Below are positions 18,844 through 48,854 of a stretch of 64,000 nt of DNA, in pieces. Under the pieces are notes generated by a model. That model did no database searches. It saw only the letters and a program-made list of their open reading frames with translations, and was not told the DNA's origin. A program made the position numbers and the translations under genes. The stretch spans positions 64,001 through 128,000 of the forward strand of contig CAWJZV010000008.1 in assembly GCA_963847445.1 (NCBI GenBank), read 5' to 3'. This DNA comes from an uncultured delta proteobacterium. GTDB taxonomy: Bacteria > Desulfobacterota > Binatia > UBA9968. Position 1 is the first letter of the stretch; each line of letters begins with the position of its first letter.

Positions 18844-18850
18844 GCGGCAA

Positions 18851-19921
18851 CTAGCGCTTGCTGATGAACAGCTTGCGCATGAGTCCCTCCCACTCGTTCA
18901 TTTTTTTCTCATATTCTTCGGGCGTGTATTTGCTTTCGAGGTAGAGTTTTTTGAACTTTTGCTCCAACGACCCGATATCGCTTCGTGGCGAGCTGAGCCC
19001 GCCTTTCATGGCGACCTGCTGCCCTTCCTTGGAATGAATGTAGTCGAGAAATAGCAGCGCGGCATGGGGATGAGGCGACCCAAGCACCATACCGGAAATG
19101 CCGACGCCGGCGATCACCGGGTCCAAGGGGCGCCATTCCACCGGCGCGCCTTTTTGCTTGTGGGTCAAGATGTTGGAATTAAAAATCGTCGGCGATAGGG
19201 GAACCTCGCCGGAAGCGACGAGTCCGGATAAAGCCGCGCCTGAAATATTCTGCACATTGATCTCTTGGGCGCTGAGCTTCTCGAGAAATTCGCGGCCCAT
19301 CAGCTCGAGCAGCGCGCCGATCCATTGCGTTCCGGTCGTGGTTCCGGCAATCGACATTTTTCCTTTCCATTTGGGATCGAGATAATCTTTGATGCTCTTC
19401 GGCGCGTCCGCGGGCGCGATCACCTTCGAGTTGTATCCGAGGCTGATGTAAATTTCGCGGTTGGACCAGCCGTAAACGCCGTTTTTGCCTTTGAGCTTTG
19501 CCTCATCATCGTAAGCGCTCAGCTCCGGCGAGAAATGCTCATAGAGCATTTTTTCGCGCAACATAATCGCCATGTACTCGGGGCTGGTTTCGACAACGTC
19601 GGCGATGTTGCGGTTCGCAGCGATCTCCTCCGTGAGCCGCTTCAACAGCGCTTTGGAGTCGCTGCGCCAGACGTTGGCCTTGACGAAAGGATATTTCTTT
19701 TCGAACTCCTGCGAGACCGGGCCGGCCACCCATGTGTTTGACGTGTAAAAGACGACCTGGCCTTCTTTCCGGGCGCCTTCGAGTAAAATCTTTTCCCGGT
19801 CCTTGCCTTGGTAGAGCGCCAGTTCAACCGGCGACAGCGGTTTGGCCTGGGCCGCCAAGGAGGATGCGGTTGGTAGGCCGGCCATTAGCAATACAAAGAT
19901 CAGCAACGTTTTAGAAAGCAT
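18851..19921 (-). CDS. FbpA/AfuA-like solute-binding protein
   Basis: LALYQGKDREKILLEGARKEG, LDPKWKGK, GEVPLSPTIF. Confidence 0.87.
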   Translation of the reverse strand: MLSKTLLIFVLLMAGLPTASSLAAQAKPLSPVELALYQGKDREKILLEGARKEGQVVFYTSNTWVAGPVSQEFEKKYPFVKANVWRSDSKALLKRLTEEIAANRNIADVVETSPEYMAIMLREKMLYEHFSPELSAYDDEAKLKGKNGVYGWSNREIYISLGYNSKVIAPADAPKSIKDYLDPKWKGKMSIAGTTTGTQWIGALLELMGREFLEKLSAQEINVQNISGAALSGLVASGEVPLSPTIFNSNILTHKQKGAPVEWRPLDPVIAGVGISGMVLGSPHPHAALLFLDYIHSKEGQQVAMKGGLSSPRSDIGSLEQKFKKLYLESKYTPEEYEKKMNEWEGLMRKLFISKR

Positions 19922-19954
19922 CGAGCGATCTCCCTTGTTTGGCTAGATAATAAG

Positions 19955-21133
19955 CTAATCGAAGTAACCGTGCTTGTGCGCCCACAGCCATAGGTAGGCG
20001 ATTTTTTCATTGTAAAGCTCGGAATAGCCAACGTGGCCATAGCGTGGGATGAAAACAACATGGGCGCCGCGTGTGTTTGCGGCATATTTCCGCGCCCATG
20101 AACATCTCGCGCTTGTTTTCCAACGGCGCGCCGCCGTTGACCCAGTGGCCCTTGTCGTTTTCGCCGGCGACAAGCAAAACGCGAATCGATTGCAGCCAAT
20201 TCGCATCCGGTTCCTGTAAGTGATCGAAGTACTCTTCGCGCGGCAGGCCGGTGCGCTTGGGGTACTCTTCCAAGATGTCCCACCGCTGCGTTGTGCTGGT
20301 TATCGCACAAACTGGTTTTCATTTGGGAACGCAGCGGGCTGACCAGACGAATGTAATCGTCAGCGCCGCCCCACGGCGTTAAGTCCTCCGGATCGACGTA
20401 GCCTGAGTTTTTGAACGAGTCCGGGGAGCGCCGCGACACATGGTCCACTGGAATCTCCCGGTATTTTTCCGCGCCGGTCTGGTCGCGCCACTCCTTGCGC
20501 CAGCCGTCGGGGCCGCCGCTGCCAAATCCGACCAGGCCGATCACTTTGGTTCTCTTGCTGAAACGCGCCAGGTGCGCGGCCATGGGACCGCCGGTGGAAT
20601 GGCCGAAGCCGATGATTTCACGTCCCGCCAGATGTTGATCAGTAAGCGCCCCTGCCCCCTGGAGAATGACGTTGAAGGTGCATTTCAAATTGCGGTCAGC
20701 AATTTCTTCCTGACTCAGCTCTCGATCCATGAGATAGATCGGCATGCGCTCGGGGATGGGAACTTTCCACACGCCGCCTGGCGGGTAATGGCCTGGATAG
20801 GTGAGCGCGAGGACTTTGAAACCCCTGGGCAGCGACAACCCGCGCCAGACCGGGCCGTCCGTCGGGCGTCAAGTCCATGATCTTTTCACTGCCTGCGCCG
20901 CCGTGAAAAAAGACAAAGGCGCGGCGCGGATCGGTTTCCTGCTCCGGCGTGTACAGCGTGCCGTGCATGTCCCAGTCGTAACCGTTGCGCTGATAACGAG
21001 CGGTTACATCGGTGCTGGTAAACTTTCTGTCAGAGTAGGGTGGCGCGATGGCCAACCATTCGTCCCAGGTGAACTTCAATAACAGCTCGTCGGATTTCAA
21101 TCCATCTAAGTATTTTTCGATAGCGCTGGCCAT
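19955..21133 (-). CDS. Alpha/beta-hydrolase-fold protein of unknown function (frameshifted)
   Basis: FFHGGAGS oxyanion loop, GHSTGG nucleophile elbow, VAGENDKGH, YGHVG across ORFs 20696, 19900, 20007 and 19955. Confidence 0.7.
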
Positions 21134-21147
21134 GGCAGTGTCTCCGG

Positions 21148-21979
21148 TTACGATTTGCTGGCGTAGGTGTCGAGATAATACTTGGCGATCTCGCCTTTGG
21201 TGGCGAACCAAACATCGGGAAACCCTTTGGCGTAGCGAATGCATTCTTCGAACACGCCGATGATGTTGGGCCGGCCGCCGATATGGGCATGGACCAGGCA
21301 ATCGATCAGCTTGGGCGCGCCGGCTTGTCCTTCGGCGTAGAGACAATCGAAGGCGGCTTTGAAACTATCGAAATAGTCTCGCGCAGGGTTTTTGTGGGTG
21401 AACAAAAGGCTCAAATCATTGGCGTAATCGAGCCGCGGCATGATGATCAAAGGTTTGCCGTTGACCATGCGATGCTGCGGAATATCGGGCCCCGGCAGGT
21501 CACCGGTCCAAAAAATGCCTTCGTCGACGAAATTACCGAAGGTGATAGTCGTTGACGCGATGGCCGGGACTTACCCAGCCCACTGGACGTTTACCGGTCA
21601 CCGATGCGATGGCATCGAGCGTACGCTTGATCAACGCTCGTTCACTGGCGGCATCGAGCTCGGAAAGGGCCGTGTCGTTGACCCAACCGTGGCCGACGAT
21701 TTCATGGCCGCCGGCATGGAGCTCTTTCAAAGCGTCCGGAAAATCTTCGGCGATGCGGCCGTTGGTGTCGATGGTGCCTTTGACGCCGTTGCGGCCGAGC
21801 GCATCCATGATGCGCCAGATGCCGGCCTTGCCGCCGTATTCGCCGTAGGCGAGCGATGCGTAATCCGGTTTGCCCTCGCTGCGGCGATACTGTGAAGATT
21901 TTTCGAAAGCTTCGAAGGCAACGAAGAAGCTGACGGCGATCTTGGCGTTGTTCGGCCACTTGATCGGTGCGAGTCTCAT
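21148..21979 (-). CDS. Polysaccharide deacetylase family, PuuE/allantoinase-like (frameshifted)
   Basis: WPNNAKIAV, EYGGKAGIWR, HEIVGHG, PVGW, FDCLYAEG, HAHIGGRP. Confidence 0.85.
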
Positions 21980-21992
21980 AATGGTTTCCTTT

Positions 21993-23007
21993 TTATTGCT
22001 TAGGCCCGCCGAAAATATTGCGGAACTGTTCGTAGTTTTTATTGAAGTCGTCGCCGGCGCTGAATTCGTCGATGACGAAAGTTAGTTTTTCCAAACCCTG
22101 GACGGTGGTCGGCACGGCGCGGCGAGTCGGTACCCGGCCAAAGGATGCGATGATTCTTTGTCCCTCTTCGGACAGCATGAAGTCGACGAAGAGTTTCGCC
22201 GCGTTCGGGTGCGGCGCCTTGGCGGCGACGCCGATCGGTTGGAACTTGGTGAAGACCGGATCCTGCGCCAGCCAATCCACCGGCGCGCCTTTGCGCTTGG
22301 CGTCCTCGGCGTTGTGAATGTAGGTGTTGAGCACCAGCGGAAACTCGCCGGCGGCGAGCAGGCCGGTGATGATCGTCAGCCCTGAATAAAGTTGAAACTC
22401 CTGAGCGCCGAGTTGCTTCATATAGGCCAAGCCTTTGTCCTGGCCCAGCCGTTTGAGCTTCCAGGAAAACCACTCGGGCTTGGTGTCGTCCATGCCGATC
22501 TTGCCGCGCCATTTCGGGTTGAGCAGATCGTCGTCGGCTCACCGGCACTTCGCTGCGCTTCACCATGCGGGTGTTGTAAGCGATGACGTTCGGCATCATG
22601 TAGATCGCCGCCCAAAACCCGTCGGCGTCGAAGAAACCTTTCTGCAACTGTTTGGTTTCGGGTGAAAGATATCTGGCCAACAGGTTTCTCTTCTTGAAAA
22701 AATAGGCTTGGGTCTCGGCGGACTGGACGACATCGAAGTCGAAGCGCCCGGCTTGGGTCTCGGTCATGATCTTGGTCAGCAGCCGTTCGCCGACGGCGCG
22801 AAACATGTGGACCTGCAGGAAAGGATACTTGACGCGAAAGGCATCGTTGAGCTTCTGCGCCTGGTCGACGGTCATCGAGGTGTAAAGGACGAGCGATCCT
22901 TCTTTCTTGGCCGCTTCGATCAGTGAGTCATGATTATTCGCGTTCAGCGGTGTTGCGAATAAAAGACACGATAAGACGCATAGCGCTAGGTGGCTGACTC
23001 TGTTCAT
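21993..23007 (-). CDS. FbpA/AfuA-like solute-binding protein (frameshifted)
   Basis: AAKKEGSLVLYTS, IAYNT, GAPVDW, APHPNAAKLFVDF, SEEGQ. Confidence 0.85.
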
Positions 23008-23101
23008 GGTTCTTGCCCCGATTGGAACTCGTGCCGGATACTATCAAGGCGTTAGCGAAAGGGTCAACCGCGTCGCCACGCGAAGTTTCCCCGCATGAAA
23101 C

Positions 23102-23130
23102 AAAAAAGGGATGCCGATGGGCATCCCTTT
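23102..23130 (-). terminator. Intrinsic terminator closing the boxB-fd-nuoF operon
   Basis: AAAGGGATGCC-CATC-GGCATCCC-TTTTTT on the minus strand, 25 nt after the nuoF-like stop. Confidence 0.8.
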
Positions 23131-23155
23131 GATTAACCGGATCGAGTCTTATCCG

Positions 23156-24406
23156 TTAGGCCGTCGCGAGCAGCGCCTGGAAGTCGTCGGGGAAAAGCTT
23201 GAGGGCGCTTTCGATGGGCGGTCCGGGCATGGCGATCAAGTTACAGAAACCCTTGCCTTTGTTAAAAGCCAGCACCTTGCCGAACTGTTCAAGGATCGCC
23301 GCGTTACCCTGGCCTTGTTGAACTTTCTTCATCAGCATAGAAAGCGTGTTGGTCTCCATGCGGCAGGCGGCGCATTGGCCACAGGATTCGGCGGCAAAAA
23401 AGCCGGTGATGCGCACCAACTCGTCGACGATGGAATCGCCCTCGCGAACGATATGGACGACGCCGCAGCCGAGCATGGAACCGGCGTCGCGCATGGCGTT
23501 GGGTTCCAACGGCGTATCGATCTTGTCCGCCGGCAAGTAGGCGGATGACGGCGAGCCGGGCATGAGAGCTTTGATTTTCTTGCCATCTTTCAGGCCGCCG
23601 CCGCATTCTTCAATCAGATAGCGCAGCGGTGTGCCGAAGGGGAGCTCGTAGATGCCGGGTCTTTTTACCTCTTCGGTTTCGTTGAGGGCGAACAGCATGG
23701 TGCCGGGACAATCTTTGGTGCCGAAGCCGCGATACCAGTCGGCGCCTTTCAATAAAATGCGCGGTACGTTGGCCAGGGTCTCGACATTATTTACCGATGT
23801 CGGTTTGCCGAACAGGCCGACGGTGACCGGGAAGGGCGGTTTTTGCCGCGGCAGGGGCTGCTTGCCTTCGATCACTTCGAGCACGGCGGTGTCTTCGCCG
23901 GCAACATAGTTATGCGGCGCGGCGACGATCTCGATGTCGAGGTCGTAGCTGCTGCCCAGAATTTTTTCGCCCCAGTAGCCCGCCGTTCTGGCTTCGCCCA
24001 AAGCGTCGTTGACGCTTTTGATCGCCGCTTCGTACTTGGCGTTGATGTAAAGATAGGCCTTCGCCGCGCCGATGGCATAGGCGCCAAGGACTGCGCCTTC
24101 GATGACCAGATGGGGCAGGTTCTCCAACAGCACGCGGTCTTTGTGGCTGCCCGGTTCATCTTCGCCGCCATTCATCACCAAATAGCGCGGCAGCTCGGCA
24201 GCTTCGCGGGTAAACTGCCACTTTTTGCCGGTGGGGAACCCCGCCCCGCCATGGCCGCGCAGCCCGGCGTCGGAGATTATTTTAATTACATCGTCGGGGC
24301 TTCCCTTGAGGGCCTGGGTCAACGCTTCATATCCGCCGCGGGCCTGATACTCTTTCAGCCCTTCGCGGCCCTCGACCACGCCCTTGGGGAAAAGGATGCC
24401 TTCCAT
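23156..24406 (-). CDS. Stand-alone NuoF/HoxF-like NAD(P)H-binding FMN/[4Fe-4S] protein
   Basis: GLRGHGGAGFPTGKKW, NGGEDEPG..KDR, YVAGEDTA, NNVETL, ESCGQCAACR...FC; no other nuo genes nearby. Confidence 0.9.
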   Translation of the reverse strand: MEGILFPKGVVEGREGLKEYQARGGYEALTQALKGSPDDVIKIISDAGLRGHGGAGFPTGKKWQFTREAAELPRYLVMNGGEDEPGSHKDRVLLENLPHLVIEGAVLGAYAIGAAKAYLYINAKYEAAIKSVNDALGEARTAGYWGEKILGSSYDLDIEIVAAPHNYVAGEDTAVLEVIEGKQPLPRQKPPFPVTVGLFGKPTSVNNVETLANVPRILLKGADWYRGFGTKDCPGTMLFALNETEEVKRPGIYELPFGTPLRYLIEECGGGLKDGKKIKALMPGSPSSAYLPADKIDTPLEPNAMRDAGSMLGCGVVHIVREGDSIVDELVRITGFFAAESCGQCAACRMETNTLSMLMKKVQQGQGNAAILEQFGKVLAFNKGKGFCNLIAMPGPPIESALKLFPDDFQALLATA

Positions 24407-24409
24407 TGG

Positions 24410-24739
24410 TTAGAATACTCCAGTGTCGAGTAGTTGGTAGATCAATTCCTTCAACGACGAATCGATGGTGTCCAAGCGTTGCACATGGGGTGCGCCGGCG
24501 AGATGGGCGACGATGTCGTCGAGATCTTCGCTCTTGACGTGAGCGTACCAGTTTTTTTCAGGGTAGATCACAACATTGGGACCTTCCTGGCAGGCGCCAA
24601 AACACATGTAGGGTTTGACGTCGACATCGGTTAGCCCCTTGGCGGCAATTTTTTGTTGCAGTTCCGCCGCCAGCTGCTCCGATCCACGGGACTTACAATC
24701 GATATTCTGACAGACCAGACAGCTTTGGCTCACGGGCAT
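24410..24739 (-). CDS. Thioredoxin-fold [2Fe-2S] ferredoxin (NuoE C-terminal-like)
   Basis: C10-x4-C15-x30-C46-x3-C50 followed by EGPNVVIYPEKNWY. Confidence 0.85.
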   Translation of the reverse strand: MPVSQSCLVCQNIDCKSRGSEQLAAELQQKIAAKGLTDVDVKPYMCFGACQEGPNVVIYPEKNWYAHVKSEDLDDIVAHLAGAPHVQRLDTIDSSLKELIYQLLDTGVF

Positions 24740-24812
24740 CTCCTTGGGGTTCTACTTACTAACGCTCGATTCGATATGCAACAGTTGATACGGCCAACAG
24801 CGACATGGCGAC

Positions 24813-25918
24813 TCAGTTCAACTGAATTTGCGAGACCCAGTCCTTGCCCTTGATGATTTCGGCGAGGATTTTTTCATCTTCGGCGTTGGGCAGAACTTCG
24901 TACAGGTGTTTCTGATAATCTTCGGTGCTGAGCAATTCGCCGGTGACGCTATAGGTCTTGCCGACATGCTCGCCGATGGAGCGGTTAAATTTTAGATCAG
25001 GCGCCTTCAGTTTGGCTTGGCCTTCCGGCACCAGCTGATTGAGCTGGTCGATCAGCTGTTGCGACTCGCTCATGTAATGTTCGCGGGCGAGATCGTTGAG
25101 TTTGTCTTTCTCCGCCGGCACGGTCGCGCATGTTCGTCGTAGCGGCCTTTGATACCCCAGGTATAGGCCCAATTCGCTGACGAGGAATGGTGGTGCCGAA
25201 CAGATCGTAGGCTGTGGAGAGCCATTTATTGAAATATTTTTGCACGATCGGCACGGGAATCTTTTGAGCTCTGAGTACTCGGGTCAGACCGGTGTGGCCG
25301 GTGAACATGTGAAAATGCTCTTCCTTGAGCATCGCCGTGACGCTTTCGGCAAGCGGGGCGAAGGATGAGTGGCTGAGCATGGTCAACTGATACTTGCCGT
25401 CGCGGTCGACAAATTCCGTGTAGGTGAAAAAGTCGAGCCAGTTGTTCACCGGCGCGTTGAAACGAGCCGAGCAGCCGGTCGCCGCGGAAAGCGCGGCGCT
25501 CGAGCATTTTACGCGCCTCAAGCTTGCCGGAGTCGCCAAAGTAGTTCACCAGCAGGTAACACATCTGCCAGCCATGGCGCATCTCTTCGCTGTTGACCCG
25601 AGTGAGCGCTTTGCGGTCGTATTCAGTGGGCGCGGTATCGAGCAGATTCTTTTGCTGTTCGACCGAGGCGAACTCGGTATCGCCCTGGTAGACGATCAGA
25701 TTCATTAGGGCGTCGCGGATCGATTGGTTGGGAATCTGGCCGACCCGCTGCCATTTCGGCTGACCTTGGAAGTCGCCAAACTCGATGTCAGGCGAGTGAA
25801 GCTCACCCAGCTTGGTTTCGAACTTGTAGTCGCCGAGCAGCGCCGCATCGTAGCCGATGTCTTTTTGCCATTGATGGAAATAGTCGATCCAGTCATCGAA
25901 GGTAGAGATTTTGATCAT
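24813..25918 (-). CDS. boxB: BoxB-like di-iron aromatic-CoA epoxidase subunit, short form (frameshifted)
   Basis: QGDTEFASVEQQ, EEMRH, DRDGKYQL and EEHFH match BoxB di-iron ligand motifs; ~368 codons over ORFs 25226, 24997 and 24813. Confidence 0.78.
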
Positions 25919-25945
25919 GGACGGTCCTTTCGTCTTAAACAATTA

Positions 25946-25963
25946 TTCGAACGATCGTTCGAA
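25946..25963. promoter_or_regulatory. Perfect 18-bp palindrome, putative repressor operator
   Basis: TTCGAACGATCGTTCGAA lies between a TTGATT..TATAAA promoter-like pair (minus strand) and the boxB RBS. Confidence 0.65.
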
Positions 25964-26057
25964 CTTATTTATAACGCTTTGACATGGGAGAAATCAACTC
26001 GCCACCGGATCCGCTGATCACTAAGCCGCGGCAGTTTGGCACCATAAAGAGACCCAG

Positions 26058-28460
26058 TTAGCGGTACATTTCCAATAGCTCGACCATTTCAAGTTGGCGA
26101 ATTTGTTCAAACAAGATAGCGTTTGATTTCGCCGACAGTATCCATTCCGAGAACGATTTGGGCGGTCGTTTTGGCGGCTTGATAGCTGATCGAACGAATC
26201 GCTTTCTTGATCACGGGAAGATAAAGCGCCCCCATGCTGAACTCTTCCAGACCCATGCCAAGAAGCACCAGGGCGCAAAGCGGGTCGCCGGCCATCTCGC
26301 CGCACATGCTGACCCGCTTGCCGGCTTTCTTGCCGGCATCAATGGTGGCATTGAGCGCCGAGAGGACGGCGGGGTGCAACGGTTCATAAAGGTTGGCGAC
26401 TTTACGGTTGCTACGGTCAACGGCCAGGAGGTACTGGATAAGATCATTGGTACCGATGCTCAAAAAATCGACTTCGCGCAGAAAACGCTCAGCCAGCTGC
26501 ACGGCCGACGGGCACTTCGACCATGATCCCCAGCTCCATCTGCCGGTCGAACGGTGTGCCTTCCCGCTCTAATTCAACCTTGGCCTCGGCCAAAAGCTCT
26601 TTGACCTTTTGGATCTCTTCGAGACTGGAAATCATCGGCACCAACATGCGCACCGAGCCCAGATCGCCAACGCGCAATATAGCGCGCAGCTGGGTCTTGA
26701 AGATCTCTTCGACTTCTAAGGATATACGGATCGAACGCCAGCCCAAAAATGGATTGGGCTCGGTGGCGACGCTGCGCATGTAGCTGGGATATTTGTCGGC
26801 ACCGATGTCGAGGGTCCGAATGGTGACGGGTTTGTCCATCATGCCTTCGACAACGCGCTTATAGAGAGCGTATTGTTCTTCTTCGCTGGGAAAATCCCGG
26901 TGCGACAAGAACGGAATCTCGGTTCTGTAGAGGCCGATGCCCTGGGCGCCATGGAGATGGGCGAAGGCCACGTCGCTCAGCAGGCCGACGTTTGCGCACA
27001 GCGAGACCCGATGACCGTCGGTGGTTTCCGCCGGCAAGTCCTTGAGTTCGCCGAGTTCGCGGTTGAGCTCCGCATAGTCGCTTTTCAAACGATCGTATTC
27101 GCGAATAACCTCGGCGGTCGGATTGACATGCACGCTGCCGGCGTTGCCGTCGATGATCAATTGATCGCCCTGGTGCACCCGTTCCATCAGGTCTTCGACG
27201 GCAACGATGCTGGGAATTTCGAAGGACTTCGCCAATATCGAGGCGTGGGACGTGACGCCGCCGGTGGCCAAGATGATACCTCTGAATTTGTCACCTTCGA
27301 GCATGCTCAAGTCGGCGGGCGAGAGGTCCTGGGCGACCAGGATCGCGTCGTCGGGCACATCGTATTGTTGCCCATCACCGCCGGAAAGAGTTTCAAGCAA
27401 GCGTTGCGCGGCATCTTTAACATCGGCGGTTCGTTCACGCAGATAGTTGTTGTCGATCTTGGCGATGGATTCCAGGTAGCGCTCGAAGACCACCCGCACG
27501 GCATACTCCGCGATGAAGCCGCCTTTGCGAATCTGTTGCTCGATCTGGTGAATGATCTGCGGGTCTTCGAGGATCAACCGATAGACGTCGAAGATCGCTC
27601 CCTCTTCGGCGGAAATCAGCTCACTCATGCGCCGCTTAACGACGTTGATCTGGTCGATGCCGCGCTCCACGGCGCCGCGAAAGCGCTCGATTTCATGCTT
27701 GGGATTACGCGATTTTTTCTTTCTAATCGCGTTCAGTTCCATGCGCGGCTCGAGGACGAACGCGTGGCCGCGGCCAAAGCCGGGCGACGCCGCCAAGCCA
27801 GACAACCGGCCGCGCCATTTCTGCTTGGTTTTTGCCGACGTCTCCGGCGGCGTGCCTTCATAGGACGCGCAGCTTGCGCATGGCGTCATTCATGCGCTTC
27901 TGGTATTGCTTGCGCTCCTCTTCCTTGGAGCGCAGGTGGTCGCTGAGACGAGCCTGGAGGATGATGCTCGCCGCTTGTCCGGAAATCGTCGTCAAAAGCC
28001 GAATTTCATCGCGGGAAAACTCACGCCGGCGGGAAGTTTGTACGACGAGCACGCCTAATGGCGTTTTCTTCTCCAATAGCGGCACGCCGAGGAACGAGTG
28101 GAAATGTTCTTCGTGGGTTTCCGGAAAGTATTTGTAACGCTTGTGTGCCAGGGCGTCGACCACCATCACCGGCTTCATCTGCTCGATGACCAAACCGGTC
28201 AACCCTTCGCCTGTGGCCATGGACACTTTGCCGATGGACTCGGGGTCGAGGCCCATGGTCGCGACCAGGATCAAGCGATTTTTTTTGGCATCGAAAATAT
28301 ATAGCGAGCAGACTTCGGTCTGCATGCGTTCGGCGACGGTGGCGACCAGCCGATCCAGGGTCTCTTGCAGGTCGTGGGAATGGGTGATCAGCGTGCTGAT
28401 GTCCGCGAGTATGCCCAAGTGGGGATAGGTGGTGCGGGCGATCTTAGTGTTCTTGGCCAT
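26058..28460 (-). CDS. ptsP: PEP-protein phosphotransferase EI-Ntr with N-terminal GAF domain (frameshifted)
   Basis: GAF domain (EVCSLY, GEGLTG, SFLGVPL) plus GGVTSHASILA (phospho-His), GIGLYRTE, RTLDIGADK, NPFLGWR, SIGTNDL, MCGEMAGDP. Confidence 0.92.
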
Positions 28461-28605
28461 GGTTGAAGATTAAAGACGAAGATAGAGTTTTCTATAAAAC
28501 ATAAATTTCACGGATTCGCCAGGCAGACTGCCGTTGTCGGTAGACGCCGTCTGTGCACGGACGGGCGAAACTACATTTTCACGCGCAGTATGCTATATTG
28601 CCGTC

Positions 28606-29016
28606 ATGAGTCAGATTGCCGGATTACGGGGTATGCGCCACCTCGCGCTCAAAGTGCGCGACCTGGCGCGCGCGAAACGTTTTTATCAAGATGTGCTCGG
28701 CATGGAAGTGGTCTGGGAGCCGGATGGCAAGAACGTTTATCTTTCCTCCGGCTGCGACAATCTGGCGCTCCATGAAGTTACCGATGGCTTCGCTCGGTCC
28801 GCTGAGGAACGACAGCTCGATCATCTCGGCTTTATCGTCGAAAGCATCGACCGGGTGCGGGAATTGGAGCAGGAATTCATTCGCCAAGGCGTAACCCTTG
28901 TCCATCCATTCAAGATTCATCGCGACGGCAGCGCGTCGTTTTACTGCGCCGATCCCGACGGCATCGTCATTCAAATGCTTTACGAGCCTACCTTGAGTTC
29001 GCAAAACATTAGCTGA
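28606..29016 (+). CDS. VOC/glyoxalase family protein
   Basis: HLALKVRD, FYQDVLG, LDHLGF, FYCADPDG. Confidence 0.88.
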   Translation: MSQIAGLRGMRHLALKVRDLARAKRFYQDVLGMEVVWEPDGKNVYLSSGCDNLALHEVTDGFARSAEERQLDHLGFIVESIDRVRELEQEFIRQGVTLVHPFKIHRDGSASFYCADPDGIVIQMLYEPTLSSQNIS

Positions 29017-45843: not shown

Positions 45844-46401
45844 ATGACTTGGCAAAATTCTGATCTAGTTGTCTACCACGGAAGTGACGAAGTATCAGCA
45901 AATCGAATACGTAAAACGTCAATGACTTCGCAAAATGGGATAGACCTTAAGCTATGTAAACCACGTACGGACTTTGGCCGAGGATTTTATACTACAACAA
46001 ATTTACACCAAGCGCGGAACTGGGCAAATCTGCGTGCGAAGAGATTAAACGCTGCGAGTGCTAACTCCGCTAGAGCAACGGTAATACAATTCAGTGTTAA
46101 GCGGGATGAATTTACTCGACTGAATACTTTGTGCTTTGTCACTGAAGGTTTGAATCCTGGGAACTCCGACTATTGGGAGTTTGTCAGTAGTTGTAGGAAC
46201 GCAACGATCTCTGACCATCAATTTAAGCCCGACCCAGCGCTTCCTGCTACGTCTAACTATGACGTGGTAATTGGGATCGTATCCTTATGGCCGCAGACGT
46301 TAGTTGTTAAGGATTGCGATCAAGTAAGCTTTCACACTCCTAAAGCAATCACGTTCCTCCTTAGTCCAACACTTATTTTAACTGGGAATCCTTATCTTTA
46401 A
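45844..46401 (+). CDS. DUF3990-like protein (ADP-ribosyltransferase-like fold)
   Basis: VYHGS, GIDLKLCKPRTDFGRGFYTTT..QA.NWA, YWEFV..CR, YDVVIG, QVSFHT. Confidence 0.8.
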   Translation: MTWQNSDLVVYHGSDEVSANRIRKTSMTSQNGIDLKLCKPRTDFGRGFYTTTNLHQARNWANLRAKRLNAASANSARATVIQFSVKRDEFTRLNTLCFVTEGLNPGNSDYWEFVSSCRNATISDHQFKPDPALPATSNYDVVIGIVSLWPQTLVVKDCDQVSFHTPKAITFLLSPTLILTGNPYL

Positions 46402-46424
46402 CCAAATTACAGGAGAACAGTAAC

Positions 46425-46700
46425 ATGCCAATAATTGATTCTTCTATTCCACCTATTCAGATCGACGAATATTGGTATGTTGTCCGAAAGACTGTGGAGG
46501 AAGTGTTTAACTGTAAGGACACCTCCGGTGTCGATAGGCTACGAACTGAAATACTTCGAAGCAAAGCGGATGAGCAGATATTGTTCTACCATGCTGAACC
46601 ATTAGACGTGGCAGCGGATCTTTCAGGCAAGTCTCCTGGAGAAGAGGAGATCAAAAAATACAATCAACTAGTTGAAAGGCATCGCAGATCGATACCATGA
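46425..46700 (+). CDS. Small helical hypothetical protein, probable partner of the DUF3990 protein
   Basis: RBS AGGAGA; begins 23 nt after the DUF3990 stop; motif LFYHAEPLDVAADL. Confidence 0.7.
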   Translation: MPIIDSSIPPIQIDEYWYVVRKTVEEVFNCKDTSGVDRLRTEILRSKADEQILFYHAEPLDVAADLSGKSPGEEEIKKYNQLVERHRRSIP

Positions 46701-46738
46701 AGGTGTTCAGCAAGGAAAACCGAGTCGTAATAAGGAAA

Positions 46739-47713
46739 CTAAAGTAAAAATTCGCTTGATTCCAAACGTTCGTCGAGGGGGAGTTCCAAAATTTCCCGCA
46801 AGAGTTCTGTTCGAAGTACATCCGACGAAGTCGTGATTGGGGCGTGAAATGCGTATCGTGTTTTTAAATAAAGAGGCAATCCTTGTTCAATACGTGACGC
46901 ACGTACCACAACCTGATACTTTGTGCTATCTGGCGGTAAATTGGCAATATCGCCCTGAATGATCATTGTTTCCCAACCTACACCTCCCAACCTCCCGTCA
47001 GCTTTCTGTTTATACGCTTCGTCGCTTACAATTATCACTTTATGCGCCAACGCCAATTCGTTGCACATCCATTGGGGAAGATCCATACCGCGTCTAAGAT
47101 TAAACTTGTCTAGCCTCGCTTGAATACCTTTGTCTATCAGAAAGAGAGCAAGTTCTTTTACCCATTCCACCGATTCTTCCGTTTTAGAGGTATGGCTTAT
47201 GAATACTCGTATCGACTCCCGAGGTTTGCCCTCGATTGTTTTTCGGATTCCTTGAATCCGATCATAAACTTCTTTGTGTAATACGTGGACGATAAGGCTC
47301 GCGCTGTTTTTCTCTATACTACCAAACCCACGATGTAGTGCTGACAGTGCCTTTTGACTCTGAATACCCCCAGCGCCCGCCCCAAGTAATGGTGCTGCAA
47401 TAGATCGAACTGACGGCTGCTCACTTGCAAACTCGCCAAGAGTCTTACCGATTAGCTCGATTGCATCGACTGTTGACGACATTCCTTCAACAGACGCTGC
47501 ATAGGCAACGAACTGTGCAATATTTTCACCGCCTTCGAAAGGTAATATTTCGACCTCCCCGAGAGCCATTCCCTCCTTCGGGTGAGGGATAGAATAATGT
47601 TCCAATGATCGGGCAACAAAACGAGTGACGGTTCCGGCGGAAGAGCATGGTAGAACGATCAAGTCGGACGGTCCATCAAAAAGATTGCCGAGTCGCACTT
47701 TTACGTACGCCAT
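46739..47713 (-). CDS. Macrodomain-SEFIR/TIR fusion protein
   Basis: N-half VRLGNLF..DLIVLPC..G...SIAAPLLGAGAGG (macro). C-half RVFISH..WV.ELA..L...GI...LD...G.DL..WM...YKQKADGRLGGVGWE (SEFIR/TIR). Confidence 0.85.
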   Translation of the reverse strand: MAYVKVRLGNLFDGPSDLIVLPCSSAGTVTRFVARSLEHYSIPHPKEGMALGEVEILPFEGGENIAQFVAYAASVEGMSSTVDAIELIGKTLGEFASEQPSVRSIAAPLLGAGAGGIQSQKALSALHRGFGSIEKNSASLIVHVLHKEVYDRIQGIRKTIEGKPRESIRVFISHTSKTEESVEWVKELALFLIDKGIQARLDKFNLRRGMDLPQWMCNELALAHKVIIVSDEAYKQKADGRLGGVGWETMIIQGDIANLPPDSTKYQVVVRASRIEQGLPLYLKTRYAFHAPITTSSDVLRTELLREILELPLDERLESSEFLL

Positions 47714-48041
47714 GCGTATACCTCGAAACTGGTTTGGTGATTATTAGCACTTGATACGGAGACATCCTTTTTGGCAACGTGTTCCGCTCGTTTCGACTAA
47801 TCCCATACCGCAAGTCCCACGGAGTACTCATCTCGTGATTCGTCATTGCCTAATGTGGTTTCAGGTTCTCTGTCTAGGCAAATCGCACGCACAAGAATTC
47901 CGAACGATTTTTCAACCTATCAGCCAGAAAATATACTAGATGCGTTGAAGATCATGCAAATATCAAAACCCCTAGAAGTGGCTTCCGGGGAAACTTCTTG
48001 TAAAGCAAGCGTAAATTTCTTTGGGAACTCGGGTTTAGTTT

Positions 48042-48854
48042 CTACTTCCGATCTTCCGGCTTGACGTATTTCACCGTGCCGCCGCCTTTTTGCGAGTGCA
48101 GGTAGCCTTCGACGTCGTTCAATGGATTGGTGTAATAGCGCAGGCGGTGTTGCACCAGGTCGTCGGCGCGCAGCGCCATGTCGAAGGGCAAATCTTTTTG
48201 CATGTAAGCGGCGATCTTAGCGTTCTCCAAGGTCGGGCCGTTGCGGCTGGCGAGTTCTTTCGCCAGGGTGTCGACGTAGCTGTCCAAGTCTTTTTCCGGC
48301 ACGACGTCGGAAACTAAACCGACGCGCTCGGCTTCGACGCCGGTCAGGTTTCTGCCGGTGAGCGAAATAAAGAAAGCTTTCTTGAACGGGATTCCCGCAT
48401 GAAATAGCGACGGTGTCGCGGTGGCGCCGTAGCTGCCGCGGATGACTTCGGGCATGCCGAACTTTGCCGTGTCGGAGCTGATGACGAGATCGTGACCGTT
48501 GATCATCGCCAGACCGCCGCCCAGGCACCAGCCGCGCACTTTGGCGACGGTGACTTGCGGAAGTCTACGCATGATGTCGACGATCTCGGCGACGCCGCCG
48601 AAGCCGCGGGTGCGGCGCCGGTTGTCCTGGCCGCGCATGTCGTAGAGATCGCGGCCCGAAGAGTAGGAGTCGCCGGCGCCGGCGGTGACGATGCAGCGAA
48701 TTTTGTCGTTGTTCGCCAGCTCGCGCAGGGTGGTCGCGATCTCGGCGAGCAGGGCGACGCTCAGGGCGTTTTTCTTTTCCGGCCGATTGAAGGTCAGCCA
48801 GGCGATGCCGATGTTTTCGTCGATGTTGGCGGTGATTTGTTTCAGGTCGGACAT
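48042..48854 (-). CDS. Enoyl-CoA hydratase/crotonase family (hydroxycinnamoyl-CoA hydratase-lyase-like)
   Basis: NRPEKKNALS, SGRDL, GWCLGGG, FGMPE, EAERVGLV. Confidence 0.88.
   Translation of the reverse strand: MSDLKQITANIDENIGIAWLTFNRPEKKNALSVALLAEIATTLRELANNDKIRCIVTAGAGDSYSSGRDLYDMRGQDNRRRTRGFGGVAEIVDIMRRLPQVTVAKVRGWCLGGGLAMINGHDLVISSDTAKFGMPEVIRGSYGATATPSLFHAGIPFKKAFFISLTGRNLTGVEAERVGLVSDVVPEKDLDSYVDTLAKELASRNGPTLENAKIAAYMQKDLPFDMALRADDLVQHRLRYYTNPLNDVEGYLHSQKGGGTVKYVKPEDRK

Follow-up and report, generated by a model that had tools for sequence, protein, structure and literature searches.

The window analysed in the present study is a stretch of 64,000 nucleotides of DNA from an uncultured delta proteobacterium assigned to the class Binatia of the Desulfobacterota (positions 64,001 to 128,000 of contig CAWJZV010000008.1, assembly GCA_963847445.1), and we examined in it a minus-strand unit of three genes that encode a relative of the di-iron oxygenase BoxB, a ferredoxin and a NuoF-like flavoprotein. 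The boxB-like gene (24813-25918) contains both E-E-x-x-H motifs, and its frame is broken by three single-base indels. It is followed by the gene for a thioredoxin-like [2Fe-2S] ferredoxin of 109 amino acids (24410-24739; PF01257, E 5.2e-9) and, beginning 3 nt past the ferredoxin stop codon, by the gene for the NuoF-like flavoprotein of 416 amino acids (23156-24406), which matches PF01512 (E 1.1e-43), the SLBB domain (PF10531) and PF10589. The putative repressor operator is a perfect 18-bp palindrome (25946-25963), which lies 27 nt ahead of the ATG of the boxB-like gene. A promoter-like arrangement on the minus strand (TTGATT, an 18-nt spacer and TATAAA; 25968-25997), recognized by eye from the sequence, ends 4 nt before the palindrome; our consensus promoter scan did not return it, because the scan rule demands a T as the last base of the second hexamer, and in an alignment the stretch TATAAAT is common to the window and two closely related loci (L005 and L006). 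At the other end of the unit lies an intrinsic-terminator-like hairpin with a T run, also on the minus strand (23095-23130, the hairpin itself at 23105-23130), which has 11 pairs, six of them G-C, and a loop of 4.

A preliminary description of this locus had listed the palindrome, a boxB-like region with both EExxH motifs, the ferredoxin gene, the nuoF-like gene with its 3-nt gap and the terminator on the minus strand, and all of these were found where it had placed them. It had also pointed to the lack of an adjacent boxA, boxC, paa or other nuo gene, and this holds at the locus, as none adjoins the unit among the open reading frames (ORFs) of the window or in profile searches. The size of ~368 codons that it gave for the boxB-like gene fits the intact relatives, but the gene is not one open frame in the window and the three frameshifts had been overlooked.

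Conservation and distribution of the three-gene unit

BoxB-like relatives were encoded in 596 genomic stretches, from which we kept 80 loci, 30 with 70-92% identity (the close loci) and 50 with 56-63% identity (the distant loci). The ferredoxin gene comes next in 29 of the 30 close loci, and in 28 of them both the ferredoxin and the NuoF-like genes follow with tight spacing and on the same strand; the two incomplete close loci are contig edges, L011 stopping at the match itself and L028 just after the ferredoxin gene. Among the distant loci a full NuoF-like gene was found in none of the 50 and a ferredoxin gene in three (L039, L065 and L074). A FastTree phylogeny, with Shimodaira-Hasegawa-like (SH-like) values as its only measure of support and with L034 omitted on account of its frameshifted BoxB-like gene, joined the 30 close rows in one clade (support 99), to which L039, L065 and L074 are sister (joint support 96). 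The synteny of boxB-like, ferredoxin and nuoF-like genes that the preliminary description had looked for is therefore conserved, and within a single clade.

Orthologs of the NuoF-like protein, defined by a threshold of E <= 1e-120, were present in all nine sampled genomes of the organism's own order (65-79% identity) and in none of 71 genomes from 15 other families of the class, and in five of five genomes where the BoxB-like genes are all distant ones, NuoF matches reached 35-42% identity at best. Across the sampled genomes, the occurrence of the ortholog coincides with this BoxB-like clade. A full-length stop-free BoxB-like copy at >= 70% identity was found in 25 of 30 relatives, a tally that, like the same-genus tally given below, includes the unpublished genome G215; any BoxB-like match at all was found in four of the 201 genomes of our phylum sample, this genome counted. 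The three-gene unit is a genuine operon conserved across one order.

Because the sister clade keeps the ferredoxin without an intact NuoF-like gene, the ferredoxin link would appear to be no younger than the NuoF link, in agreement with a ferredoxin that is the direct partner and with an electron order from the NuoF-like protein to the ferredoxin to the BoxB-like protein. Near the boxB-like gene of the sister-clade locus L065, NuoF-like fragments occur in several frames (L065:9188-9796) with the FMN (flavin mononucleotide) domain missing, and look like a remnant; the next ORF there (L065:9930-11390; 486 amino acids) is by sequence aldehyde dehydrogenase-like. An apparent ferredoxin-NuoF fusion in L032 (a 514-amino-acid ORF) was rejected, as it is an upstream extension of the NuoF frame and the two genes are separate. 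In addition, five close copies (L005, L013, L014, L018 and L023) lie on short contigs of metagenome-assembled genomes labelled Limnocylindrales, Udaeobacter, Eisenbacteria and Verrucomicrobiia; with 79-92% identity they group within the Binatia-type clade, and mis-binned contigs seem likelier here than recent cross-phylum transfer.

Frame changes in the boxB-like gene

In the window the reading frame of the boxB-like gene switches three times, from A to B, back to A and then to C. Alignment with three close loci located these changes to one extra base at ~25459, which is a surplus T within a T run, and to one missing base at each of ~25187 and ~25126. We also examined contigs of three sequencing runs from three studies of unrelated metagenomes, which are 90-99% like the window; the best-matching run contained 0.39 of the sampled words. 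A frame-restoring difference was present in three of three runs at 25459 and again in three of three at 25187, and at 25126 the restoring base was seen in run X3 only, runs X1 and X6 having no listed depth at that position. In the same contigs the genes for the ferredoxin and the NuoF-like protein are free of indels. Parts of all three genes are covered by RNA contigs of run X15, which come from relatives and in which DNA carry-over is possible.

When the proteins of L006 were placed on the window, frame changes appeared in ptsP (three), a deacetylase gene (one) and two solute-binding protein genes (one and two), and none in the VOC, ferredoxin and NuoF-like genes. The seven shifts in these four neighbouring genes and the three in the boxB-like gene make 10 in ~8.8 kb, or ~1.1 per kb, and the protein segments between the shifts in the neighbouring genes are otherwise 71-100% identical. 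For the boxB-like gene itself this tblastn comparison returned only the last fragment, and its three shifts rest on the frame reading, the alignment and the run contigs. An uninterrupted copy of the gene is present in 16 of the 16 same-genus genomes that hold it.

Because the covering contigs restore the frame, the neighbouring genes are equally shifted and the same-genus copies are intact, we conclude that the three frameshifts arose as indel errors in a long-read assembly that had not been polished, and not by pseudogenization. Three frameshifts in 1.1 kb beside two intact downstream genes might instead indicate a true pseudogene, in a unit that is decaying in this strain, but we regard this as very improbable: the ptsP, deacetylase and two solute-binding protein genes are shifted at equal density, the surplus T of the first shift falls within a run of Ts, every covering contig from the three other studies carries the restoring base, and, indels aside, the window protein is 87-97% identical to its intact relative P0001.

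A density of ~1.1 single-base shifts per kb in otherwise well-conserved genes was noted both at 18850-29000 of the window and at G000:C28:42304-45591 (L003), where a boxB-like paralog on contig C28 and its bicupin neighbour are likewise frameshifted. The assembly as a whole resembles long-read data that have not been polished, and ORF-based readings of this genome therefore need care.

Relationships of the three proteins and of the palindrome

The first 151 residues of the boxB-like product are matched by 3378 longer proteins at E <= 0.001. Among the 120 matches listed, 111 are exactly 368 amino acids long and identity is 87-97%, P0001 being 97% identical over these 151 residues. All 120 of the listed relatives, which are full-length, have a precomputed assignment to PF05138 (PaaA_PaaC), and the middle fragment of the window gene scored 28.7 bits on this family against a gathering score of 28.5. 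P0001 matched BoxB of Azoarcus (3PER) with an E value of 7.7e-51 and PaaA with one of 2.8e-8. The AlphaFold model of P0001 (pLDDT 94.1) was superposed on BoxB with bound benzoyl-CoA (3PM5) with a TM score of 0.90 when normalized to the query and 0.71 when normalized to the target, and on this model the short protein is predicted to be a BoxB core minus ~100 residues.

A density functional theory (DFT) study of BoxB gives E120, E150, H153, D211, E240 and H243 as the di-iron ligands and Q116, T119, S123, F193, F203, F206 and T210 as the residues that orient the benzoyl group, with Q116 hydrogen-bonding to the thioester and T210 linked to regio- and stereo-selectivity (PMC5489048). In the phmmer alignment of P0001 to 3PER, all six ligands and five of the seven pocket residues named in that study (Q116, T119, S123, F193 and F203) are identical. 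The protein resembles BoxB of the BoxAB system of Azoarcus evansii (3PER and 3PM5) in its di-iron four-helix-bundle fold, its ligands and these five residues, whereas it differs in the other two, in length (368 amino acids here and ~470 in BoxB) and in the genes that accompany it, which at this locus are those of the ferredoxin and the NuoF-like protein in place of BoxA, with FAD, two [4Fe-4S] clusters and NADPH. The phenylacetyl-CoA epoxidase PaaABC(D)E also belongs to PF05138 and is also a di-iron oxygenase acting on aryl-CoA, but it is far more distant than BoxB, as seen in the PaaA E value above and in a query-normalized TM score of ~0.55, and partners of the PaaB, PaaC and PaaD type are lacking at this locus. 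Its reductase, PaaE, is of the FNR type, with FAD and a plant-type [2Fe-2S] cluster, and not of the NuoF type.

The ferredoxin scored 36.5 bits on PF01257 (versus 24.8). Its cysteines C10, C15, C46 and C50 do not vary among 29 sequences and have counterparts in 1F37 and HydB. Among solved structures the best matches were Fd4 of Aquifex aeolicus (1F37; E 9.5e-12) and, in HydB, the N-terminal domain (7Q4V_B; E 9.9e-11), NuoE being a far weaker match (E ~1e-3). It is similar to Fd4 in length (109 against 110 amino acids), in the PF01257 fold family and in the cluster cysteines, and to HydB in the four-residue spacing of its first two cysteines, as seen in the HydB alignment; it differs from Fd4 in that its gene sits between those of an oxygenase and a NuoF-like protein. 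A complex prediction for the BoxB-like protein with the ferredoxin reached a best score of 0.29, against a mark of 0.32, and counts neither for nor against binding.

The NuoF-like protein has a complete NuoF-type architecture, consisting of PF01512, PF10531 and PF10589 with a glycine-rich FMN loop and four [4Fe-4S] cysteines. On the NuoF equivalog model TIGR01959 it scored 411.2 bits, under the cut-off of 558.65, and it has no nuo neighbours; the other NuoF copies of the genome (on C7 and C48) are 38-46% identical to it. The altered loop NGGEDEPG that had been remarked upon as one that might shift cofactor preference, in the position where NfnB has NADEGDPG, is present in all 29 aligned NuoF-like proteins, in which the G-E-D-T-A stretch and C342, C345, C348 and C388 are also invariant. 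Acidic residues of NuoF at the G-E-D-T-A position favour NADH over NADPH, and the conserved sequence at this position suggests NADH as the probable donor of the present protein.

In comparison with solved proteins, the NuoF-like protein scored 339.7 bits with NfnB (9N5U_B), 329.4 bits with Thermus Nqo1 (2FUG_1) and 323.6 bits with HydB. It shares with NuoF/Nqo1 of complex I, HydB and NfnB the FMN/NADH, SLBB and [4Fe-4S] domains and all of the cluster cysteines. However, the N-terminal helical part of NuoE, NuoG and a hydrogenase partner are missing here, as is the ferredoxin domain with which HydB and NfnB (both ~600 amino acids) end, whereas the fused N-terminal [2Fe-2S] domain of HydB is matched by the separate ferredoxin. 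Judged from these alignments, the pair looks like a flavoprotein of the HydB/NfnB type that has its N-terminal ferredoxin domain as a gene of its own and no C-terminal ferredoxin domain. The preliminary description had spoken of a complex-I-derived module, which is too narrow, since NfnB, Nqo1 and HydB are near-equal matches and the ferredoxin is nearer to Fd4 and HydB than to NuoE.

In 28 of the 30 close loci, versus one of the 50 distant loci, the start codon is preceded at a distance of 19-46 nt by a copy of the palindrome with no more than four mismatches; the two close loci without a copy are L029, where the contig ends, and L033, where there is none. The exact palindrome is unique in the 7.19-Mb genome (91.8% complete), and the next best site, with two mismatches, is found ~126 nt upstream of the sole boxB-like paralog; by our own estimate, ~0.15 two-mismatch sites would be expected genome-wide by chance. 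The palindrome also fits what we take to be the Gram-positive LexA-box pattern; a reading as an SOS box was dropped, as that pattern had only 17 genome hits against 8.3 expected. A consensus site has been described for PaaR of Thermus thermophilus, a TetR repressor that responds to phenylacetyl-CoA (PMC6651687). The window and 27 of the 28 related sites retain all ten bases specified in this consensus, and the variation of the palindrome is confined to the N positions and the flanks of the consensus, the ten positions being invariant or nearly so. PaaR-like repression via the palindrome is thus suggested as a good lead, although not as proof.

Gene neighbourhood, the proposed electron path and its alternatives

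The flanks of the unit were scanned in 11 of 12 chosen close loci, L027 having been dropped for its poor ORF calls, and gave 85 ORFs. The gene ptsP lies upstream in seven of the 11 and a gene for a Leu/Phe-tRNA-protein transferase downstream in six, and other genes in these flanks encode a VOC/glyoxalase protein, a radical SAM protein, an M16 peptidase and transport functions. In 15 sister and distant loci, by comparison, an enoyl-CoA hydratase gene adjoins the boxB-like gene in eight and a 3-hydroxyacyl-CoA dehydrogenase gene in four, and in the sister clade both L039 and L074 carry a divergently oriented gene for a helix-turn-helix and shikimate-kinase-like regulator, presumably of the BoxR/BzdR architecture. 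Four of the distant loci, from Acidobacteriota and Gemmatimonadota (L038, L044, L055 and L073), have the order enoyl-CoA hydratase, boxB-like gene and then 3-hydroxyacyl-CoA dehydrogenase, with an ArsC/glutaredoxin-like protein (L038, L044 and L055) or a GDPD phosphodiesterase (L073) encoded between the last two; they look like a compact CoA-ester pathway around a short BoxB-like enzyme, with no NuoF-like gene.

The second boxB-like gene of the genome (G000:C28:43345-44400; L003 and L097) encodes a protein 48% identical to P0001. It is flanked on one side by genes for PFK, GAPDH and a CBS protein and on the other by genes for a bicupin, cytochrome c oxidase subunits, Usp and CBS proteins, and the same gene order surrounds it in the same-genus genome G224 (L106). 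We take the bicupin to be of a type known from ring-cleaving dioxygenases. In three same-order genomes (G230, G232 and G234; L102-L104) and in L065, the gene that comes after a distant boxB-like paralog lies on the opposite strand and encodes a CCG-domain (HdrD/GlcF-like) Fe-S protein of 420-503 amino acids, which may be a different redox partner of that BoxB-like branch.

Given the gene content, cofactor residues, synteny and phyletic pattern described above, we propose that the conserved operon probably encodes a soluble three-component NADH-dependent di-iron oxygenase that acts on a CoA thioester and is under PaaR-like repression. The NuoF-family flavoprotein would transfer hydride from NADH to FMN and then pass single electrons on via [4Fe-4S], and the thioredoxin-like [2Fe-2S] ferredoxin would ferry them to the di-iron centre of the shortened BoxB homolog. 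There O2 would be activated and a CoA thioester, most likely an aromatic, benzoyl-CoA-like one, would be oxygenated, and a PaaR-like repressor would act on the palindrome at the transcription start. A reductase of NuoF type with its ferredoxin would in this way take the place of BoxA. A canonical boxA elsewhere in the genome, which the preliminary description had itself named among the observations that would count against its proposal, was not found at the cut-off of 459.2 bits: the highest BoxA scores were 32.9 bits here and 27.9 bits among five complete relatives (none of six genomes). Of the alternative aryl-CoA epoxidase with NuoF-type reductase that had been put forward, the conserved unit, the lack of BoxA and BoxC over cut-off in these six genomes and the tracking of the BoxB-like clade by the NuoF-like ortholog stand; an epoxide as the product, for which no BoxC-type ring hydrolase was found, benzoyl-CoA or phenylacetyl-CoA as the substrate and reduction of the di-iron centre by the ferredoxin and NuoF-like proteins are putative.

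The ferredoxin and NuoF-like proteins could also be an independent NADH:ferredoxin oxidoreductase, which would provide, for example, low-potential electrons for other enzymes, with another protein reducing the di-iron centre. In keeping with this, 47 of the 50 distant BoxB-like loci have neither gene within ~6 kb, distant genes have alternative partners beside them (the ArsC/glutaredoxin-like protein in three of 15 loci and the CCG-domain protein in L065 and L102-L104), and NuoF-type modules serve many different enzymes. We nevertheless consider such an arrangement decidedly unlikely, because the NuoF-like ortholog was found, among the genomes sampled, only alongside this BoxB-like clade, tight spacing and a common strand recur in 28 of the 30 close loci, a single operator and a single terminator bracket all three genes, and the flanks scanned contain no other conserved candidate for a client enzyme.

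Several results weigh against the proposed aryl-CoA oxygenase and its PaaR-like control. P0001 scored 236.5 bits on the BoxB equivalog model TIGR03225, below the cut-off of 499.1, and two of the pocket residues named in the DFT study are substituted in it (F206 to Y and T210 to V). A loose PaaR-type pattern is unenriched genome-wide (six hits against 8.3 expected), the three near-matches at a paa-like locus on C4 are all inside ORFs and show no link to the paa genes, and a PaaR-like regulator gene was neither present among the 85 ORFs of the close flanks nor identified elsewhere. For BoxC, which has a cut-off of 712.3 bits, the best scores were 50.2 in this genome and 74.6 among the five complete relatives (none of six genomes), and the 85 flanking ORFs include no BoxC-like ring hydrolase, aldehyde dehydrogenase, CoA ligase or enoyl-CoA hydratase; the close context looks like housekeeping and not catabolism, and no pathway for an epoxide product is visible in it. 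The neighbours of the operator-sharing paralog do not obviously point to aromatic catabolism either.

The low equivalog score, the lack of BoxC over cut-off and of any aromatic-pathway gene in the close flanks, and the position of a unit that is core to one order amid housekeeping genes would suit a BoxB-like protein that is not an aryl-CoA epoxidase and that instead hydroxylates or desaturates a non-aromatic acyl-CoA, or carries out NADH-driven O2 reduction in oxygen or redox stress; so would the Usp, CBS, cytochrome oxidase and glycolysis genes beside the paralog and the beta-oxidation-type genes beside the distant relatives. This alternative appears unlikely to us, as five of the seven benzoyl-orienting residues listed for BoxB are identical, including the thioester-bonding Q116, and the operator fits the consensus of an aryl-CoA-responsive repressor. 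Regulators of presumed BoxR-like architecture in the sister clade, and a bicupin of what we assume to be a ring-cleaving type after the paralog, also argue for an aromatic CoA thioester as the substrate.

We tentatively extend the proposal of an NADH-dependent oxygenase for aryl-CoA one step further. With the short BoxB-like enzyme might begin an undescribed aerobic route for aryl-CoA that dispenses with BoxA and BoxC, or the enzyme might make an oxygenated aryl-CoA for a non-catabolic purpose; in either case it would be core to the order and would be the first di-iron oxygenase known to be fed by an NADH module of the complex-I/HydB type. Because of the housekeeping-like context and the lack of BoxC over cut-off, a non-catabolic or a non-aromatic role is also conceivable.

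Elsewhere in the window, the region 46001-48000 has a G+C content of 0.454, compared with 0.55-0.62 in the remainder, with minus-strand ORFs at 46739-47713 and 48042-48854, and may be an acquired segment.

Our literature search, at the level of listings and abstracts, returned no paper in which a boxB-like gene is paired with a NuoF-type partner, and the di-iron oxygenases known to us receive their electrons from FNR-type reductases, Rieske ferredoxins or BoxA. If the proposed scheme is true, a NuoF-type FMN/[4Fe-4S] module that delivers electrons to a thioredoxin-like ferredoxin would be a new electron supply for di-iron oxygenases, and the unit, being small, self-contained and easy to synthesize, makes this directly testable. 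In addition, thousands of proteins of 368 amino acids are labelled 'benzoyl-CoA 2,3-epoxidase subunit B' in databases; because the genomes with such proteins, in the six searched here, show no BoxA or BoxC over cut-off, boxB-like hits in soil metagenomes may mispredict aerobic benzoate degradation for this lineage. If the route is as proposed, it would be a core feature of an entire order of uncultured bacteria that are abundant in soil.

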